Assembly: GCA_963693055.1 (NCBI GenBank)
Contig: OY843751.1
Coordinates: 1,056,001 to 1,120,000 of the forward strand
Source: a bacterium
GTDB lineage: Bacteria > Zhuqueibacterota > Zhuqueibacteria > Residuimicrobiales > Krinioviventaceae
Reading direction: 5' to 3'
Length of the DNA stretch: 64,000 nt
The translations under genes were made by a program, and so were the position numbers. Shown one piece after another: positions 3,624 to 10,776 of the stretch (its first letter is position 1; each line of letters starts with the position of its first letter). A model generated the notes under the pieces. The model was not told where the DNA came from. It worked only from the letters and a program-made list of their open reading frames with translations, and did not search any database.

Positions 3624-4490
3624 GTGGATTTAAAAACGACGTTGTTCAGATATCGGTTATTGATTATCACTGTTTTGGGATTTTTTGTGCTGATTCTTGT
3701 ATCGATGCTGAACGAAATTCTGGATTTACCACACCTGCTTTTCAATCAGCCCGCAACGCCAATCAACAAGACCGAGTTTTTGTTAGAAACTTTTATGCTG
3801 CTATGCTTTGGATTTGTTATTAATGTCAGTGTTTTTATCTATTCTTATCGATATAATCGTTCCAAAGTTATGCTTATGCGGTCATTGGAAGAAAAGGAAT
3901 TTCTGCTCAAAGAGATCCATCACCGTGTCAAGAATAATCTGGCTCTGATTACCAGCATTATTAACCTGCAGGAACGATCTGTTGATGATGAGCAATTTAA
4001 AAATATTTTGCAGGACCTGAAAAGCAGAATAACTTCCATAACACTCATTCATAAAAAATTATATACATCCGATGATTTGAATACAACCCATGCTGAAACC
4101 TATTTCCGCGAACTGCTTGAAGAAGTAACACAGATATCTGACAAATCGATTGATATTCAAATGGATTTTGATGATATCCGCATCGATCAGAAAACGCTTA
4201 TTCCTTTGGCTATTGTAACTAGCGAGTTGGTGACCAATGCCATTAAATATGCCTTCCCGGATGAAACCCATCCGCAGATTCGCATGACTTTAAAAAATAG
4301 AAAAGAAAACCTTTTATTCAGCCTGGGGAACAATGGCGCTGGATTGCCGGAGGATTTTTCAATAGAAAATTATTCTTCATTGGGGCTAACACTGGTGAGG
4401 CTGCTGACCAGCCAGATTAATGGGGATTTGGAGATTGTTACTGAACCACACACTGAATTTAGGATAAGGTTCCCGGTGGATGGGGAGTGA
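3624..4490 (+). CDS. Membrane sensor histidine kinase, HisKA_2 family
   Basis: Two TM helices, LLKEIHHRVKNNL H-box, ELVTNAIKYAF N-box, SSLGL G-box; SD AAGGAG before GTG. Confidence 0.9.
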   Translation: MDLKTTLFRYRLLIITVLGFFVLILVSMLNEILDLPHLLFNQPATPINKTEFLLETFMLLCFGFVINVSVFIYSYRYNRSKVMLMRSLEEKEFLLKEIHHRVKNNLALITSIINLQERSVDDEQFKNILQDLKSRITSITLIHKKLYTSDDLNTTHAETYFRELLEEVTQISDKSIDIQMDFDDIRIDQKTLIPLAIVTSELVTNAIKYAFPDETHPQIRMTLKNRKENLLFSLGNNGAGLPEDFSIENYSSLGLTLVRLLTSQINGDLEIVTEPHTEFRIRFPVDGE

Positions 4491-4551
4491 AATTTTAATA
4501 TTTAATCAAAGAAAAGTTTTGACGTAACAAGCCAGGGGCAAATAAAAAGGG

Positions 4552-5604
4552 ATGGTTATGATGAAAACCTATATTTTTCGCAAGAGCATAATATTATTCG
4601 CAATTGCTGTATCTCCACTGTTTAACTGTTTTAATCATCAGGACCATCAGGTGACCAGGCCCGAGGTCCCCCGTTATGTGCTGACAGGTACAACAATTGA
4701 TTATACCACCGGACTGCCTTTGGCCAATGTCCCCTTGAAAATAACGGCAGGTATGTTGGTATATGATGTTCGGTTTAACAGCCAAACTCTGCAATCTGAC
4801 AGCAGCGGTTTTTTTTCAATTTCTCCGGTATATCCCGGTAATTATACATTGTACGCGCAAAAAAATGGCTGCTGGTTACAAGGCAGTAAGCTGGAGATAC
4901 AACATGAAGACCGTGATTTTGTATGTAAAGTACCAAATGTAGTTTATGGTCGTTTACATTCATCAAAATTATTTATTGATGATAAAACATTCCCAAATGC
5001 AAATGATTTTTATCGTAGCTTTACTATAAGCAGTTTAACTGGTATTTTCCCAATAAAGTTTTTAGAATATGATCTAAGCTGGTCATATTATTTTGCAAAT
5101 GTAACACTAAAAAACGGCTTGAATACATATTTGTCACATTTTAAGTCTGAAATACCATTAAAGGGAATATATCAATTGGCTATAGGTGGCGGGTATTGCT
5201 GGGGTTGTAAAAAACCGGATTCAATATTGGTGTTTGATCAATGGCAATATACGTTTTTGAATAAATATTCAACAGGTGTTTTTATTAAAGATATTGCCTA
5301 TAACGTGAATGATAAAAATTTATATGCCTGTACTGACTCTTTACTGTACCAGGTAGATGTGAAAACATACGCTATGAATGAAATAGCGGCATTACCCATA
5401 ACCGGTACAATCGCCATGACATGGAATGATAATTATCTTTATCTTTTGCAAGGCACGGAGGACCTTGTCTATAAACTTGACAATCGATTGCGAATCGTTG
5501 ATATTTTTGCCATAGTCGATCAGACAGACAACTTTCAATACACCCAATTGTATGATATGAATTTTGATGGATATAATAATTTGTGGATATCGGTTGAGGG
5601 GTAA
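4552..5604 (+). CDS. Putative lipoprotein: carboxypeptidase-regulatory-like domain plus probable beta-propeller (paralog 1)
   Basis: Hydrophobic N-terminus ending LFNC; GTTID-TG-PLANV...SDSSGFF...PGNYTL pattern; propeller-like strands in the C-terminal half. Confidence 0.65.
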   Translation: MVMMKTYIFRKSIILFAIAVSPLFNCFNHQDHQVTRPEVPRYVLTGTTIDYTTGLPLANVPLKITAGMLVYDVRFNSQTLQSDSSGFFSISPVYPGNYTLYAQKNGCWLQGSKLEIQHEDRDFVCKVPNVVYGRLHSSKLFIDDKTFPNANDFYRSFTISSLTGIFPIKFLEYDLSWSYYFANVTLKNGLNTYLSHFKSEIPLKGIYQLAIGGGYCWGCKKPDSILVFDQWQYTFLNKYSTGVFIKDIAYNVNDKNLYACTDSLLYQVDVKTYAMNEIAALPITGTIAMTWNDNYLYLLQGTEDLVYKLDNRLRIVDIFAIVDQTDNFQYTQLYDMNFDGYNNLWISVEG

Positions 5605-5780
5605 ACTTTATTCAAGTTTACGTTAATTAACTAGTCCGTTATATACGAACTGTTACTTTTCTCTATACTAAATTCAGAATCAAATTTTTGGATGAAAGGT
5701 GATATATTTTCATACAGATTCAATTTCATGTAAAAAGTTTTTATAAAAGATACTTGACTATTGTTTTTTTTTATTTTTTC

Positions 5781-6180
5781 TTGCCCTTGGATCGGGCGAA
5801 AAATAAGGGGTTAAAAATGAAAAAAATTAAAGTTCTTGGGATTTTTCTTTTATTTTCAGTAATTGTTTTTGGTGGCTTTCAGATTATTAATGTTTCACCT
5901 GCCTATGCTCTAGATAATCCATTTTGTGGTACTGGAATTTATGTCAGAGTGTAATCTATGATGTAGAATGTCAATCTTGTTGGTGCGAACAACTTGGTGG
6001 TGGTCATAGATATTGTTGGGTTTGTCAGTGTTATATTGAGGAAATCGAGTATACTTATATTTCACAGGAGTTAACTTGTGATTATGAGGAGCAATGGCAT
6101 CCCTGCTATGGTTATTAATTGTTAAAACTTAAATAGTCTAAACATACACTGTACAATAGTTTGATCTGATCCAGGGGCAA
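5781..6180 (+). repeat. Long-range inverted repeat enclosing peptide gene 1 (arms 5781-5800 and 6160-6180)
   Basis: TTGCCCTTGGATCGGGCGAA pairs with TTTGATCTGATCCAGGGGCAA: 20 bp including four G-U pairs and one bulge. Confidence 0.85.
5817..6118 (+). pseudogene. Secreted 10-Cys peptide 1, split by a 1-nt frameshift at ~5936 (pseudogene or sequence error)
   Basis: ATG 5817 after AAGGGG; signal peptide ends AYA. Adding one A in GGAATTT gives CGTGNLC, which matches CPVDNLC in the paralogs and joins the 5924-6118 frame. Confidence 0.85.
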
Positions 6181-6191
6181 ATAAAAAAGGG

Positions 6192-7241
6192 ATGGTTATG
6201 ATGAAAACCTATATTTTTCGCAAGAGCATAATATTATTCGCAATTGCTGTATCTCCACTGTTTAACTGTTTTAATCATCAGGACCATCAGGTGACCAGGC
6301 CCGAGGTCCCCCGTTATGTGCTGACAGGTACAACAATTGATTATACCACCGGACTGCCTTTGGCCAATGTCCCCTTGAAAATAACGGCAGGTATGTTGGT
6401 ATATGATGTTCGGTTTAACAGTCAAATCCTGCAATCTGACAGCAGCGGTTTTTTTTCAATTTCTCCGGTATATCCCGGTAATTATACATTGTACGCGCAA
6501 AAAAATGAGTGCTGGTTACAAGGTACCAGGTTAGAAATACAACATAATGACCGTGATTTTGTATGCAAAGTACCAAATGTGATTAATGCAAATCTACATC
6601 CAAGTCAAATTTATACAGGTTCTCATTTGTACCCTAATGCAAATGGATTTTATCGTTGTTTTACAATTACAAGTTTAACAGGTGTAATCCCAGTAAAGTT
6701 GATTAGTGCTGATAAAATTTCATATTATTTTGGTAAGGTTACATTAAAGAACGGCTTTGGAAAATATTCATCATTACATGAAACCAATTCTTCATTACAA
6801 AATATATATCAACTTGCACTTGGTGATGAAAAGTTTTGGGGTTGTAAAAAACCGGATTCAATATTGGTGTTTGATCAATGGCAATATACATTTTTAAACA
6901 AATATTCGACAAATGTTTTTATTAAAGATATTGCCTATAACGTGAATGATAAAAATTTATATGCCTGTACTGACTCTTTACTGTACCAGGTAGATGTAAA
7001 AACATACGCTATGAATGAAATAGCGGCATTACCCATAACCGGTACAATCGCCATGACATGGAATGATAATTATCTTTATCTTTTGCAAGGCACGGAGGAC
7101 CTTGTCTATAAACTTGACAATCGATTGCAAATCGTTGATATTTTTGCCATAGTCGATCAGACAGACAACTTTCAATACACCCAATTGTATGATATGAATT
7201 TTGATGGTTATAATAATTTGTGGATATCGGTTGAGGGGTAG
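6192..7241 (+). CDS. Putative lipoprotein: carboxypeptidase-regulatory-like domain plus probable beta-propeller (paralog 2)
   Basis: Paralog of 4552-5604; about 7 aa differences outside the central ~85 aa. Confidence 0.65.
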   Translation: MVMMKTYIFRKSIILFAIAVSPLFNCFNHQDHQVTRPEVPRYVLTGTTIDYTTGLPLANVPLKITAGMLVYDVRFNSQILQSDSSGFFSISPVYPGNYTLYAQKNECWLQGTRLEIQHNDRDFVCKVPNVINANLHPSQIYTGSHLYPNANGFYRCFTITSLTGVIPVKLISADKISYYFGKVTLKNGFGKYSSLHETNSSLQNIYQLALGDEKFWGCKKPDSILVFDQWQYTFLNKYSTNVFIKDIAYNVNDKNLYACTDSLLYQVDVKTYAMNEIAALPITGTIAMTWNDNYLYLLQGTEDLVYKLDNRLQIVDIFAIVDQTDNFQYTQLYDMNFDGYNNLWISVEG

Positions 7242-7312
7242 ATATAAATTTCTTACATTTTTTTAAATTCTTGTATTATTAATTGAAATTTGCTAAAAAT
7301 ATTAAAAATATC

Positions 7313-7341
7313 TTGACTTTTACGATAATATTTGCTAATTA
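7313..7341 (+). promoter_or_regulatory. Putative sigma70 promoter of peptide gene 2 (duplicated at 7885-7913 for gene 3)
   Basis: TTGACT-N17-TAAT(T/A)A with TG extension in both copies. The -10 is imperfect. It would place +1 at about the start of the 5' stem arm. Confidence 0.55.
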
Positions 7342-7740
7342 AATATCAATCCTTGGGTCGTACAAAACTAAAATTTCAAATAAAATCTTAGGGGATTTAT
7401 TATGAAAAAGATGAAAACTATTAGTCTGGTTCTATTAGTAGCTGTAGTTGTCTTTGGTGGGATTCATATAGTTAATATTGAAAGTGCAAACGCCAGGCCT
7501 GGTTGTCCAGTAGAGAATATGTGCCCTAGCTGGTCATATTGTAAGTCATGTTGGTGTTCTAGTGATGGTTTTACAAGTACCTGGATATGCGAATGTCAAA
7601 AGGCATCTGATTTAGACCATTTCTTTCAAGTAGCAGAAATTGTTCCAGAGTGTGATGAGGGGCCTTGCTATTACGATTGTCCTGAACCTCCAGGTGATGA
7701 TTAAAAATAAATAAAATTTGATGACCCAAGGATTGTATTT
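7341..7740 (+). repeat. Long-range inverted repeat enclosing peptide gene 2 (arms 7341-7366 and 7717-7740)
   Basis: AAATATCAATCCTTGGGTCGTACAAA pairs with TTTGATGACCCAAGGATTGTATTT: 24 bp, two single-nt bulges, one G-U. Confidence 0.92.
7402..7704 (+). CDS. Secreted 10-Cys peptide 2
   Basis: SD AGGGGA; Sec signal ending ANA; mature part has 10 Cys including CxxCWC and WICEC. Confidence 0.9.
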   Translation: MKKMKTISLVLLVAVVVFGGIHIVNIESANARPGCPVENMCPSWSYCKSCWCSSDGFTSTWICECQKASDLDHFFQVAEIVPECDEGPCYYDCPEPPGDD

Positions 7741-7911
7741 GTAAAACGGTAAAAATGGATTTATTTTTTAGTTAAGATTTCAAGTTGTTGCTCTCTTGTT
7801 TGGAAAAAGTTTGAAGATAGGTTAATATATTTAAATTTAAAAATAATTTTTTATAATATTTTTTTCGAACAAAAATAAAACATCTTGACTTTTGCGATAA
7901 TAATTGCTAAT

Positions 7912-8317
7912 AAGATATCAATTCTTGGGTCGTACAAAACTAAAATTTCAAATAAAATCTTAGGGGATTTATTATGAAAAAGATGAAAACTATTAGTCTT
8001 GTTCTATTAGTAGCTGTAGTTGTCTTTGGTGGGATTAATATAGTAAATGTTCAAAATGCAGATGCAAGTATTGGCTGTCCAGTAGATAATCTTTGTCCTA
8101 GTTGGGCACATTGTAATAAATGTTGGTGCTCAGATGATAGTGGTGGTGGTGCCAGTACATGGATCTGTGAATGTGAAAGTTTAAAATCTGGTAATAAATA
8201 TCCTGTCGCTGAAATTGAACCGGTATGTAATGAAGGGCCGTGTTATTGGACTTGCCCTGAACCTCCAGGTTGATGATTTAATATAAATAATATTTGATGA
8301 CCCAAGGATTTTATTTT
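7912..8317 (+). repeat. Long-range inverted repeat enclosing peptide gene 3 (arms 7912-7938 and 8293-8317)
   Basis: AATTCTTGGGTCGTACAAA pairs with TTTGATGACCCAAGGATT; the C>T change at 7923 leaves a U-G wobble. Confidence 0.9.
7974..8273 (+). CDS. Secreted 10-Cys peptide 3
   Basis: First 21 aa identical to peptide 2; signal ends ADA; same 10-Cys framework. Confidence 0.9.
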   Translation: MKKMKTISLVLLVAVVVFGGINIVNVQNADASIGCPVDNLCPSWAHCNKCWCSDDSGGGASTWICECESLKSGNKYPVAEIEPVCNEGPCYWTCPEPPG

Positions 8318-8341
8318 TTTGACAAAATTTTTTAAATTGGA

Positions 8342-8917
8342 GTGGGAATGAAGAAAATTAATTTTACCAATTTATTGTTTATAATAATTTTTGTTTTAAT
8401 GTCATTTGAAGTTATATACCTCAGTGTACAAAATAAAAAGTTAACGAACCAATTGAACAAGCGAGTTTATGCTACTGAAAGCAAACCCGATTTGCCTGTT
8501 GGCACCCAGTTACCAGATTTGTCATTTACTTTACAAAATCAGGATAGAATTGATTTGTCAGCGCATAATGATAAATACTTTTTTGTGTTTTTCTCAACCC
8601 ACTGTCAAGCTTGTGTACAGGATGCTGATACATGGGAAAATATGAATGAGTTGAATACCAAGAATCAAGTGAAAATGATAGGGATCTGTAAAGGTGATCC
8701 TGATGTAGTAAAAGAATTTATGGCACTGCACAAGCTAAACTTTCCTGTTGTTCCTGATCCTGAAAATGAAATTGTTAATCAATTTGGAATAAAATCATTC
8801 CCCAGCAAATGTCTGGTTGATGAAAATAATAAAGTTGTCTTCTATTCCAGAGGATCCTCAGGGAAAAGAGATTTAGAGCAATTAAAAAAGATTGTACCTG
8901 AATTACAGGCAGGTTAA
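8342..8917 (+). CDS. Membrane-anchored TlpA/ResA/AhpC-TSA-like thiol-disulfide oxidoreductase
   Basis: N-terminal TM helix; G-x-x-LPD, FFSTHCQAC (CxxC), LNFPVVPD, FGIKSFP (cis-Pro loop). Confidence 0.85.
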   Translation: MGMKKINFTNLLFIIIFVLMSFEVIYLSVQNKKLTNQLNKRVYATESKPDLPVGTQLPDLSFTLQNQDRIDLSAHNDKYFFVFFSTHCQACVQDADTWENMNELNTKNQVKMIGICKGDPDVVKEFMALHKLNFPVVPDPENEIVNQFGIKSFPSKCLVDENNKVVFYSRGSSGKRDLEQLKKIVPELQAG

Positions 8918-8920
8918 GAT

Positions 8921-9550
8921 ATGAAGAAGATAGCGATGAATGCTTTGTTGGTTATTGTATTGCTCGCGGTTGGTATTCACTTTGTTATACAAATCAATAA
9001 CAACAATAACGTTTTGGCTGAAATTGATGATTCGCTCAAGCCCTTGTCATATCAGCAGCAAGTTGATTACATGAAACAGGTTTTTGCTCAGGCGGACTCG
9101 TTTCGTTATATTAAATTCAGGGACCAGTTTTTTTATCATGTCTTTCAGGATACGGTCCCGGTTGGGTATGCTAAAATTATCGACAAGGACCTTGCCTGTT
9201 CTACCTGTCGTGATGTGAGATATTTATGCGCCCTGGACAGTGCCTTGTGTGTTAAAGAGGTTATACTTATCAGTGAATTGGACCAGAAACGTATCTATGA
9301 CAAAATACTCCATTTAGAAGATGGTGTAAACCGAGTGGTTGGGAAAAAAGTTTTTAATATTGTGAATTTGTCTGATTTTGTTTCTCAATTCATCAGCACA
9401 TTACCAAGTGATAAAATTTTTAACAAGGATGCGGAGATTGATGTAATCAGTGGTGCCACCAAGACCAGTCACAGTATGTATGAGGGCATTAGAGAGTTTT
9501 TAGATGAAGCGGCTTATTACTCCAGGCAATATCATGCGCAAAATTTGTGA
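8921..9550 (+). CDS. Exported FMN-binding domain protein with flavinylation motif and CxxC
   Basis: N-terminal hydrophobic anchor; IDVISGATKTS ([S/T]GA[S/T]) motif; CSTC plus two more Cys; starts 3 nt after the upstream stop. Confidence 0.75.
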   Translation: MKKIAMNALLVIVLLAVGIHFVIQINNNNNVLAEIDDSLKPLSYQQQVDYMKQVFAQADSFRYIKFRDQFFYHVFQDTVPVGYAKIIDKDLACSTCRDVRYLCALDSALCVKEVILISELDQKRIYDKILHLEDGVNRVVGKKVFNIVNLSDFVSQFISTLPSDKIFNKDAEIDVISGATKTSHSMYEGIREFLDEAAYYSRQYHAQNL

Positions 9551-9577
9551 TTTTTTATTCCTTTTTAAAAAGATGTT

Positions 9578-9610
9578 TTTGCCTGGCACAACCTGCCAGT
9601 GTCAGGCAAA
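9578..9610 (+). terminator. Hairpin closing the peptide/redox operon
   Basis: TTTGCCTGGCAC/GTGTCAGGCAAA 12-bp stem; no immediate U-tract. Confidence 0.55.
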
Positions 9611-9828
9611 CAGATGTAATTTTTATATAATAAATTATGCATGGATAAATAAAATGTTTGCTTTTGTGCTATAATTATTGTATAATTTCAAAATTGATCC
9701 CAAAGTAAAAATTTTGCAATTTTTTTATACAGTGTGTTTTTGACACAGGGTTTGGTGTGTCTACATGTGCCGGGAAAAGTGTGTTTATCTAATTATTCTT
9801 ATTAACTCATAATTCGAGAGGGTGTATT

Positions 9829-10776
9829 ATGCGTAATTGTTTCATTTCATGTCTGTTACTAGTATTACTTTCAAGTGTAGTTTTTGGCAATGAACAGAAA
9901 TTTGTAGATGATGTAGAGCAGTTTGTAGCACAATTGAATTCCCAGGAACAAGCATTTGAGAAACGCAGTATTCAAACTCAAATGAATATAATTAATGAAC
10001 GTCGAGTTCCTTATGCAATGATCTATGAGCAGACAGGATTGTTTACCTGGCAGCTGTTTTCAAATTGTTTTTTTGATTCTGATGTTGATACAACTACTAC
10101 AGTAAACGTGAATATTGATTACAGACCCACAACTGATCAATTTACTGTAATACCCGCTTATTTTACTTTTACTTCAGAACGTCCCTATGATTCATTGGAT
10201 GATTTTAAAGCTTTTATGATTACAGTCTTTCAGAGTGTAGGGTCCGCTCATTCGGTTTTAATTGATGAAGCCAATAGCAGATATGGATTTACAGGCCATC
10301 ATTATTGCCAGTCATTTTATTCCGGTACAACAAAATTGGTTCTTGATTGTTATTTTGTATATGTTAATGATGTTGCCTGTGCATTTTATTATATGACAGG
10401 TGACTCGTTTTATGACAATGCCTTGTATCAACTCTTTTTTGAATTGATTCTTGATGTGGTTGAATTTCAACAACCAAGTGCAATCAATAACGAATCCTTG
10501 AAAAAACCGGTGAATTTTGACATGTCTCAAAATTACCCGAATCCTTTTAACGCTTGTACCCGGATCCAATACTCTGTCAATGAGCCTACTGATGTAAAAA
10601 TTGAGATTTTTGATGTCAATGGTAGATTAGTACAGACTCTGGTAGACAAGTTTCATTCCCAGGGACAATATGACATTAGCTTTGATGCAAACGATTTGGC
10701 CAGTGGAGTTTATATTTACAGAATTTCTGATATGAACCATGCTTCCCGTGCACATCGGATGATCTTGGTAAAATAA
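9829..10776 (+). CDS. Secreted protein of unknown function with C-terminal T9SS/FlgD-like sorting domain
   Basis: Signal peptide; QNYPNPFN...IFDVNGRLV...LASGVYIY...MILVK. Confidence 0.8.
   Translation: MRNCFISCLLLVLLSSVVFGNEQKFVDDVEQFVAQLNSQEQAFEKRSIQTQMNIINERRVPYAMIYEQTGLFTWQLFSNCFFDSDVDTTTTVNVNIDYRPTTDQFTVIPAYFTFTSERPYDSLDDFKAFMITVFQSVGSAHSVLIDEANSRYGFTGHHYCQSFYSGTTKLVLDCYFVYVNDVACAFYYMTGDSFYDNALYQLFFELILDVVEFQQPSAINNESLKKPVNFDMSQNYPNPFNACTRIQYSVNEPTDVKIEIFDVNGRLVQTLVDKFHSQGQYDISFDANDLASGVYIYRISDMNHASRAHRMILVK

Follow-up and report, generated by a model that had tools for sequence, protein, structure and literature searches.

We have analysed a window of 64,000 nucleotides (the whole stretch of DNA under study, to which all positions refer) from a bacterium of the family Krinioviventaceae. 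It contains three genes for cysteine-rich peptides (Cys-peptide genes), each flanked by a pair of complementary arms and followed by other genes. The features of the locus are given below; both promoters are predictions based on the genome's own consensus.

5781..5796, + strand: 5' arm of the gene 1 clamp (16 bp uninterrupted, 3 G-U; fold and helix scan)
5817..6118, + strand: Cys-peptide gene 1, frameshifted (first frame 5817-5954, Cys-rich second frame about 5924-6118)
6165..6180, + strand: 3' arm of the gene 1 clamp, 12-18 nt ahead of the next start codon
6192..7241, + strand: 349-aa protein with a weak carboxypeptidase-regulatory-like domain, following gene 1
7313..7341, + strand: predicted promoter of gene 2 (TTGACT, 17 nt, TAATTA, a -10 without its last T; predicted +1 about 7348)
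7347..7361, + strand: 5' arm of the gene 2 clamp (15 bp uninterrupted; after a bulge, 4 extra pairs up to 7366)
7402..7704, + strand: Cys-peptide gene 2 (100 aa, 10 Cys, hydrophobic N-terminus)
7721..7735, + strand: 3' arm of the gene 2 clamp (fold and uninterrupted helix)
7885..7913, + strand: predicted promoter of gene 3 (TTGACT, 17 nt, TAATAA; predicted +1 about 7920)
7920..7933, + strand: 5' arm of the gene 3 clamp (14 bp uninterrupted, 2 G-U)
7974..8273, + strand: Cys-peptide gene 3 (99 aa, 10 Cys; 66% identity to gene 2)
8297..8310, + strand: 3' arm of the gene 3 clamp (fold and uninterrupted helix)
8311..8320, + strand: T-rich run (9 of 10 nt are T) immediately behind the 3' arm of gene 3
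8342..8917, + strand: ResA/TlpA-like thioredoxin with an N-terminal hydrophobic stretch, likely a helper gene
8921..9550, + strand: protein with a weak FMN_bind match under the Pfam cut-off, likely a helper gene

The peptide family and its distribution

The peptides of this family have 91-100 aa, 8-10 Cys and a signal-like N-terminus, and they match no known family; for gene 2, neither a Pfam nor an NCBIfam family was found. Gene 1 had been taken for an intact ORF in the first-pass annotation, but it is split over two frames and is likely a pseudogene. The frameshift region has the same sequence, with no gaps, in contigs of three runs of one sample. The 349-aa protein behind gene 1 has a paralogue at 4552-5604, and a relative of it also follows a clamped gene (locus L006) in G001, a genome of the same genus. 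None of the other h-type paralogues in the source genome (G000) and G001 has a Cys-peptide gene upstream.

The family is narrowly distributed. It occurs in 2 of 125 genomes of the class, a collection of 5.8 billion proteins contained four family proteins, all from G000 and G001, and the one locus matched in the genome collection was that of G001. No further members were found among viral and metagenome contigs, the best scores in the ESM Atlas reached only 0.76-0.77, and both matches of a leader motif scan of metagenomes lay in coding sequence unrelated to Cys-peptide genes. The pattern of the paired core was matched in 29 of the 125 class genomes, as its reversed control also often was. When 30 paired-core loci were scored, none outside G000 and G001 enclosed a similar gene, although a few had 15-18 of 22 positions paired. 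One of these loci, L058, belongs to an unpublished genome (G116) and is not used for any conclusion.

A predicted helix encloses each Cys-peptide ORF

The arms are a genuine clamp, which is shorter than first claimed. Folding placed them, at pair probabilities above 0.5, at all three places where they had been proposed, with the whole ORF inside each pair. The fold gave 15 such pairs for gene 1 (5781-5795 with 6166-6180), 24 for gene 2 (7341-7366 with 7717-7740) and 22 for gene 3 (7914-7938 with 8293-8315). The proposed length of 20-24 bp is thus reached in the fold by genes 2 and 3, but the uninterrupted helices are 16, 15 and 14 bp; the outer AU-rich extensions that make up the difference have no conserved register, and in genes 2 and 3 they precede the predicted +1. 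The folding z-scores of the whole transcripts are modest (-1.4 to -2.6), indicating that the clamp alone is exceptional.

An arm pair encloses the ORF in all five known genes of the family, three in G000 and two in G001 (G001a and G001b). The conserved helix measures 14-16 bp in four of them and 11 bp in G001b. Accordingly, the proposal that every Cys-peptide gene is clamped stands for the present family, but does not extend to four more distant thioredoxin-linked Cys peptides that were folded (L062, L064, L065 and L069, the last with only 21 nt of upstream sequence), where no comparable clamp was seen; this comparison left out four other candidates that run off their loci. L064 carries a 9-bp G-C-rich match that the fold does not use.

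Covariation of the arms

Across the five genes, which represent three lineages of one genus, 68 of the 70 cells of a 14-column core are paired, 60 as Watson-Crick and 8 as G-U pairs. There is no A-C combination, so that the earlier observation of G-U pairs confined to the + strand holds. The five compensatory changes reported between genes 1 and 2 were also recovered, at core columns -4, -3, -2, +5 and +9, with column -5 added in the helix comparison. Over the three lineages, two-sided changes occur in seven core columns. On the other hand, CUUGG and one G-U pair are unchanged in all five genes; the 5' base is the same throughout at 7 of the 14 columns, while neighbouring columns covary freely. 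The 3' arm forms a conserved island within a divergent trailer, with 13 of 14 columns identical across gene 2, gene 3 and G001a.

The pairing depends on the register and on the partner. Sliding the core by 1-3 nt left only 18-40 paired cells. In comparisons across lineages, the pairing energy is -20 to -29 kcal/mol for cognate arms and -8 to -16 kcal/mol for non-cognate ones. Column shuffles among the three lineages reached the observed 40 of 42 in 24 of 100,000 trials, and dinucleotide shuffles of the flanks never equalled the helix (0 of 300 for each of the five genes). A list of flanking helices from 5171 ORFs in this genome has gene 2 in 6th place and gene 3 in 14th; this ranking comes from a scan for uninterrupted helices, which replaced an earlier duplex scan swamped by long loose duplexes. 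The covariation, its recurrence in two further genes of the relative and the strand bias of the G-U pairs together argue for the cis helix at the RNA level that had been proposed. The arms likely pair in the mRNA as a helix of 14-16 bp, running from the predicted transcript start to a stretch just past the stop codon.

Predicted transcript start and 3' boundary

The promoter consensus of the source genome is TTGAC-17-TA...T (122 of 412 sites). In gene 2, gene 3 and G001a, TTGACT-17-TA sets the predicted +1 on core column -4, which is the start of the shared helix. The earlier placement of the 5' arm near +1 in genes 2 and 3 is therefore kept for the shared helix and extends to G001a, but the outer extensions lie upstream. 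In the folds of these three genes, the initial 6 nt are predicted to be paired, the first at 0.22-0.78 and the later ones at 0.8-1.0. The three genes showing this coincidence form a single lineage, and the promoter spacers of gene 1 and G001b are 12 and 15 nt. Of 144 comparable sites, 122 end their -10 in T, which the predicted -10 does not. A scan with the consensus promoter did not list the predicted site of gene 2 and offered another one, with +1 near 7336.

As first noted, no classical terminator follows the genes: within 4400-9900 no hairpin terminator was found on the + strand, and the five sites found are all on the - strand. An intrinsic terminator split across the ORF would call for a G-C-rich helix with a U-rich run immediately behind it. 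The 8 nt after the 3' arm contain 1 T in gene 1 and, in the four intact genes, 5 in gene 2, 7 in gene 3, 3 in G001a and 5 in G001b. In the background, 13% reach 5 and 1% reach 7; coding positions form part of this background, which flatters the run. As the counts for gene 1 and G001a show, conservation of the run is lacking.

Discussion

We consider the chances even that the helix acts by closing the ends of the mRNA, that is, by capping the 5' end and marking the 3' boundary as a hairpin terminator otherwise would, so that the peptide message would be enriched over the helper mRNA. Transcription would start at the first base pair of the helix, and the sequestered 5' end would hinder pyrophosphate removal and 5'-end-dependent attack by RNase E/G or RNase Y. 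RppH and RNase E are both reported to require single-stranded 5' ends (PMC3997798). At the other end, the helix may serve as the 3' boundary through leaky termination at the U-rich run, through halting PNPase as it trims read-through RNA, or through both. The peptide would then be made from a single-gene message that has closed ends and lives long. The genes downstream of it (thioredoxin, flavin-binding or lipoprotein-like) would be expressed from rarer, shorter-lived read-through RNA, giving more peptide than helper. The source genome encodes RNase E/G, RNase Y and PNPase; no match for RNase J above the cut-off, and none for RppH at the cut-off, was found in it. Of the four functions first offered (excision, stabilisation, circularisation and translational gating), stabilisation in this form fits best. 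Pure end closing leaves the invariant CUUGG, one U and the G-U pair unexplained, and an active RNase III might cleave such a helix.

Pairing between the two ends of an mRNA is known in principle. In Bacillus subtilis, a 14-bp helix that joins the 5' UTR to the 3' UTR stabilises the hbs mRNA, with rescue by compensatory mutation (Braun, Durand and Condon 2017, PMC5737220). The hbs message shares with our clamp a UTR-UTR helix of about 14 bp around a short ORF with a free Shine-Dalgarno sequence (SD), and its helix stabilises the primary transcript. However, the 5' partner in hbs overlaps an RNase Y site inside the leader and the 3' partner precedes a normal terminator, whereas here the helix starts at the predicted +1, no + strand hairpin terminator is found in 4400-9900 and further genes follow; unlike that of hbs, the clamp also recurs with covariation through a paralogue family. 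In Staphylococcus aureus, icaR mRNA likewise has UTR-to-UTR pairing about one ORF, but its 3' UTR is described as pairing with the SD and repressing translation (PMC7821165); here the 3' arm finds its partner 28-50 nt upstream of the start codon, and the SD takes no part in the pairing. Promoter-like sites, counted on both strands as a check for antisense RNA, are at chance level (33 versus 27 +/- 6).

Type I toxins are short, hydrophobic and about 30-60 aa long, and the end pairing of the hok toxin mRNA resembles that of aapA1. In Helicobacter pylori, an 11-bp end helix of the aapA1 mRNA is reported to induce termination and to stabilise the message, with a half-life over 3 h (PMC5416894). 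The 5' and 3' ends pair across the entire ORF there as well; however, the closed fold of aapA1 sequesters the SD of a 30-aa toxin under antisense RNA control, whereas our genes encode Cys-rich proteins of 91-100 aa followed by helper genes, and their SD is unsequestered (footprint opening changes by at most 1 kcal/mol). With a free SD and a product of this size, the genes were not assigned to type I toxin-antitoxin mRNAs. The element had been called undescribed. Its principle is known from hbs and aapA1, but the element itself is without a match in Rfam 15: none in 5600-8400 reached the gathering score, the two matches seen having about 23 bits where 55 and 70 are required. In the literature covered (main texts, largely outside subscription journals), neither this element nor a comparable clamp on the gene of a peptide precursor was found described.

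The main alternative, possible though unlikely, is cleavage of the helix by RNase III, which would act at the inner end, immediately inward of the invariant G-U. Cutting would uncouple the peptide ORF from the downstream genes with loss of the protected ends, and the clamp would then time decay or processing instead of stabilising the message. The source genome has one full RNase III gene (one match above the cut-off, in the region 3537119-3537505 of G000), and the B. subtilis enzyme is reported to cut long-range duplexes of 10-36 bp with strands hundreds of nt, up to 505 nt, apart (PMC11780869), as are those of the clamp. By rules derived in E. coli and Aquifex (PMC1540722, PMC3074117), a substrate should be paired over 11 bp or more next to the cut, with A-U at proximal-box position 2 and without G-C at position 4. 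Both strands would be cut, with a stagger of 2 nt. Only one register avoids G-C antideterminants in all five genes, G001a having U-G for U-A (from a hand-read pair table). Since this register uses the invariant G-U and the invariant U, cleavage would explain their fixation, but the argument is post hoc and the boxes are degenerate. Moreover, the clamp helix does not reach the 22 bp of the two-sided substrate (PMC3867540), nor the length of the rRNA processing stems of the host's family, with which it does not share the full sequence: the complete core CUUGG-R-U-S-G is missing from the 16S and 23S stems of six genomes, where parts alone recur. The resemblance of the core to these stems is partial and not conserved in the family. 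The proposed excision by RNase III is conceivable; against it stand the shortness of the helix and its start at the predicted +1, which makes a 5' cut unnecessary.

It is improbable that some other RNA-binding factor recognises the invariant duplex (CUUGG, U and G-U) and so governs how stable the peptide message is, where it is located or how it is translated. The seven invariant 5' bases amid covarying columns form the pattern expected of sequence-specific recognition; however, none of the loci encodes a candidate protein, and invariance over three lineages can reflect shared ancestry.

A translational gate is quite improbable. In this mechanism, the anti-SD-like (C)CUU of the 5' arm would block AGGGG on the nascent RNA until captured by the 3' arm, or the closed form would be silent as in hok and aapA. 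In B. subtilis, anti-SD-like sequences are reported to work over a distance (PMC12697547). Gene 1, gene 2 and G001a could form arm-SD duplexes of -7.7 to -8.0 kcal/mol, and the leader-only folds of gene 2 and G001a contain this pairing. However, the duplex is weak in gene 3 (-4.9) and G001b (-1.3), and its probability, at most 0.4 while the nascent RNA is short, drops to about 0 after synthesis of the ORF. Considering that the SD lies outside the helix, uncovered in the closed form, and that closing hardly alters the ribosome site, the gating first offered is weakly contradicted. Circularisation is without support: at the cut-off of PF09414, the one family tested, no RNA ligase was found.

It is very improbable that the arms act in DNA, as terminal inverted repeats of a non-autonomous mobile cassette or as single-strand hairpin recombination sites that move or duplicate the peptide genes. 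The number and position of these genes differ between G000 and G001, a duplication boundary at about 4532 lies inside a copy of the gene 1 3' arm, and G-T pairs in single-stranded DNA would likewise favour one strand. In addition, the only stronger flanking helices in the genome belong to repeats and to the ends of a multi-copy IS-like ORF (not family-scanned), and TAT flanks both arms in genes 2 and 3, which are one lineage. The other three genes, however, lack a clear target-site duplication, and at both loci the synteny boundaries of presence and absence fall 85-100 nt outside the arms, which makes transposon ends unlikely. The predicted promoter also lies outside the arms, the cargo is without a family match, the paired pattern occurs at only these three places in G000, and no arm joint is listed in the contigs of four runs, although contigs drop rare variants. 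Finally, it is hardly credible that the arms arose by chance or are what remains, without function, of an ancient inverted duplication. The five genes come from one genus and count as only three lineages, and flanks rich in AT pair readily, but both kinds of shuffle and the seven two-sided changes, kept while the flanks diverge, argue against it.

Returning to end closing, we tentatively put forward a stronger form, which we regard as rather unlikely as a whole. The helix would be a split terminator and cap, in which the first 14 nt build the termination helix by bridging 350 nt of translated sequence, and the fixed CUUGG/G-U signature would be read by a nuclease or binding protein. It would set the ratio of secreted peptide to folding helper and may exemplify a general, so far overlooked class of closed-end bacterial mRNAs, missed by terminator and motif finders because the loop is the gene.

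Few bacterial pairings between 5' and 3' UTRs are known so far, and 3' UTR elements such as that of hbs are described in a review as poorly conserved between related species (PMC7821165). In contrast, compensating changes have preserved the clamp described here while its paralogue family diverged, in a setting where the precursor gene must outproduce its helper genes. The natural variants of the arms provide built-in mismatch and rescue controls. If the ends are indeed closed, the clamp would be a ready part for stabilising short mRNAs, and these bacteria would possess a compact control of operon stoichiometry that works without a hairpin terminator and is invisible to local-structure searches.

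Results

The bacterial genome under study is closed (6.5 Mb, 39% G+C), and the window is its positions 1056001-1120000. Region 4552-9550 of the window comprises the following genes.

4552-5604: 350-aa gene, the first of the region
5817-6118, +: Cys-peptide gene 1
6192-7241, +: 349-aa paralogue of the first gene
7402-7704 and 7974-8273, +: Cys-peptide genes 2 and 3
up to 9550, +: ResA-like thioredoxin, followed by a protein that matches FMN_bind weakly

The two paralogues (4552-5604 and 6192-7241) have near-identical ends, and their differences fall in a central block, as though a variable segment had been exchanged; their family has about ten members here and about ten in a same-genus genome, G001. 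The peptides carry 10 cysteines and a hydrophobic, signal-peptide-like N-terminus (by eye and hydropathy), and they matched no Pfam or NCBIfam family.

In minimum-energy and centroid folds alike, a helix between a 5' arm and a 3' arm, hereafter the clamp, encloses the ORF of each of genes 1-3. Pairs with a probability above 0.5 numbered 15, 24 and 22, respectively, and they persisted with 300 nt more downstream sequence. The first-pass annotation had proposed 20-24 bp per ORF; the enclosing helix is borne out for all three genes, but its uninterrupted part is 16, 15 and 14 bp, and for genes 2 and 3 the outer extension would lie in DNA predicted to be untranscribed. We scored 5171 ORFs of the genome by the best uninterrupted helix that the 90 nt upstream of each could form with the 90 nt downstream. 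Gene 2 was listed 6th and gene 3 14th; the five entries above gene 2 were two repeat-hairpin pairs and an inverted-end, IS-like ORF present in three copies. Gene 1 is absent from this list because it is frameshifted; scored separately, its helix was exceeded by 2 of the 5171 ORFs.

A search of 61 related genomes yielded two further family members, G001a and G001b, both in G001 and both clamped in folds, and a profile search across 125 genomes of the class added none. Within these genomes the clamp is narrow in range, with its carriers in one genus. For each of the five genes, none of 300 flank shuffles matched the helix. A gap-free alignment of the five genes on their CUUGG core has 14 columns, in which 68 of 70 cells are paired (60 Watson-Crick, 8 G-U, no A-C), compared with 18-40 when the partner was slid by 1-3 nt; the two unpaired cells are those of G001b at columns -3 and +9. 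By their N-termini, the genes form three lineages: gene 1; gene 2, gene 3 and G001a; and G001b. Between lineages, two-sided changes that keep pairing occur at columns -4, -3, -2, -1, +5, +7 and +9, in agreement with the compensatory changes first described around this core. Column shuffles among the lineages reached the observed 40/42 in 24 of 100000 cases, a figure to be taken as a guide rather than a probability since relatedness is ignored and the outer columns are taken as homologous. Arms pair strongly with their cognate partner and weakly across lineages. The G-U pair at column +8 is invariant, and all three further one-sided changes also give G-U. The earlier observation of + strand G-U pairs holds and, as modest evidence from four events, points to the + strand acting as a single strand.

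At other loci of the phylum (L062-L065, L069; L065:1107-2619 is in genome G051), unrelated Cys-rich, secreted-looking peptides lie beside the same thioredoxin type, and the G051 locus also has a homologue-like third gene. No comparable clamp was found at these loci, including the four (L062, L064, L065 and L069) whose distant thioredoxin-linked Cys peptides were folded.

Of 412 intergenic TTGAC sites in this genome, 122 have TA...T after a 17-nt spacer, and TTGACT-17-TAATTA/TAATAA is common to gene 2, gene 3 and G001a. From this we infer a +1 about 7 nt after the -10, at 7348 (gene 2) and 7920 (gene 3), which would in all three coincide with column -4, where the shared helix begins; the placement is inferential because the -10 lacks its last T, a consensus scan preferred another site, and the spacers of gene 1 and G001b are short. 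With this +1, the outer extension would be promoter DNA. The 3' arm starts 17-48 nt past the stop codon and ends 12-59 nt ahead of the next start. As the first-pass annotation had stated, no classical terminator follows the genes: a scan of 4400-9900 found no + strand hairpin terminator. Gene 3 has a T-rich run after its 3' arm, gene 2 and G001b have a moderately T-rich one, and the sequence at this place is not T-rich in gene 1 and G001a. On a read-through transcript, the gene 2 3' arm (7721-7735) could pair with the gene 3 5' arm (7920-7933), and the gene 2 5' arm with the gene 3 3' arm; the equilibrium fold prefers this nested cross-gene pairing.

The gene 1 ORF is broken across two frames near 5929. 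It is probably a real pseudogene, since the identical, gap-free sequence occurs in contigs from three runs of a single sample that may be the source sample. Its clamp is nonetheless the strongest of the five (16 bp), an indication that the frame was lost recently or that the RNA is under selection for the sake of the downstream gene. At 7272-7841, contigs from three runs of one sample have short-sided joints skipping about 554-568 nt, the gene 2 unit length, reflecting either a repeat artefact or population copy-number variation. Before the first paralogue, 4520-4550 has a truncated copy of the gene 1 3' arm plus TTGAC, which may be what is left of a deleted peptide gene.

Discussion

We consider the chances about even that the clamp helix closes the ends of the peptide RNA, protecting its 5' end and setting its 3' boundary. 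This reading is favored because RNase E and RppH are reported to require a single-stranded 5' end (PMC3997798) and because there are precedents. In hbs, a 14-bp UTR-UTR helix around a short ORF is described as stabilizing the transcript, with compensatory rescue (PMC5737220), and for aapA1, an end helix of 11 bp is reported to cause transcription termination, the RNA lasting over 3 h (PMC5416894). The genome encodes RNase III, RNase E/G, RNase Y and PNPase; none of the models tried for RNase J, RppH and RNA ligase had a match above the cut-off.

The main rival, a cleavage site for RNase III, seems unlikely to us. The B. subtilis enzyme is reported to cut long-range duplexes of this size (PMC11780869), and one register meets the proximal-box rules using invariant pairs (hand reading against PMC1540722 and PMC3074117), but the clamp helix is short, and its core is absent from the rRNA stems of the family. 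Among the roles first suggested, namely stabilization, translational gating, excision and circularization, stabilizing end closure is favored. Gating is unlikely because the energy to open the ribosome footprint shifts by no more than 1 kcal/mol when the clamp closes. The helix does not include the SD (AGGGG), with which the arm can pair, weakly, in short nascent RNA. Arms as DNA cassette ends, to which TAT flanking the arms of genes 2 and 3 and a duplication boundary near 4532 inside the copy of the gene 1 3' arm might point, seem very unlikely: segment 4493-7257 is missing from G001 and the G001b gene from the genome under study, and in both comparisons homology ends 85-100 nt beyond the arms; moreover, the predicted promoter lies outside them, and the genome has just three occurrences of the paired pattern.

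Neither an Rfam match nor a literature account of this element was found, consistent with its having been called undescribed. However, since 5'/3' end pairing is already known, it is a variant rather than a new principle. What is new is a family-wide, covarying clamp within an operon, with a free SD and no hairpin terminator; the covariation and operon-internal place go beyond hbs, and the free SD sets it apart from aapA1.

Promoter, leader and signal-peptide region (7305-7500, 7877-8070 and, for G001a, L002:1410-1590) are near-identical in gene 2, gene 3 and G001a, with 26-30 of the first 31 aa identical and divergent mature Cys-rich parts, which is typical for secreted peptides that diversify. 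For these peptides, an end-closing clamp would, at the even chance we give it, enrich peptide RNA relative to that of the helper genes, the thioredoxin and the FMN_bind-like protein.
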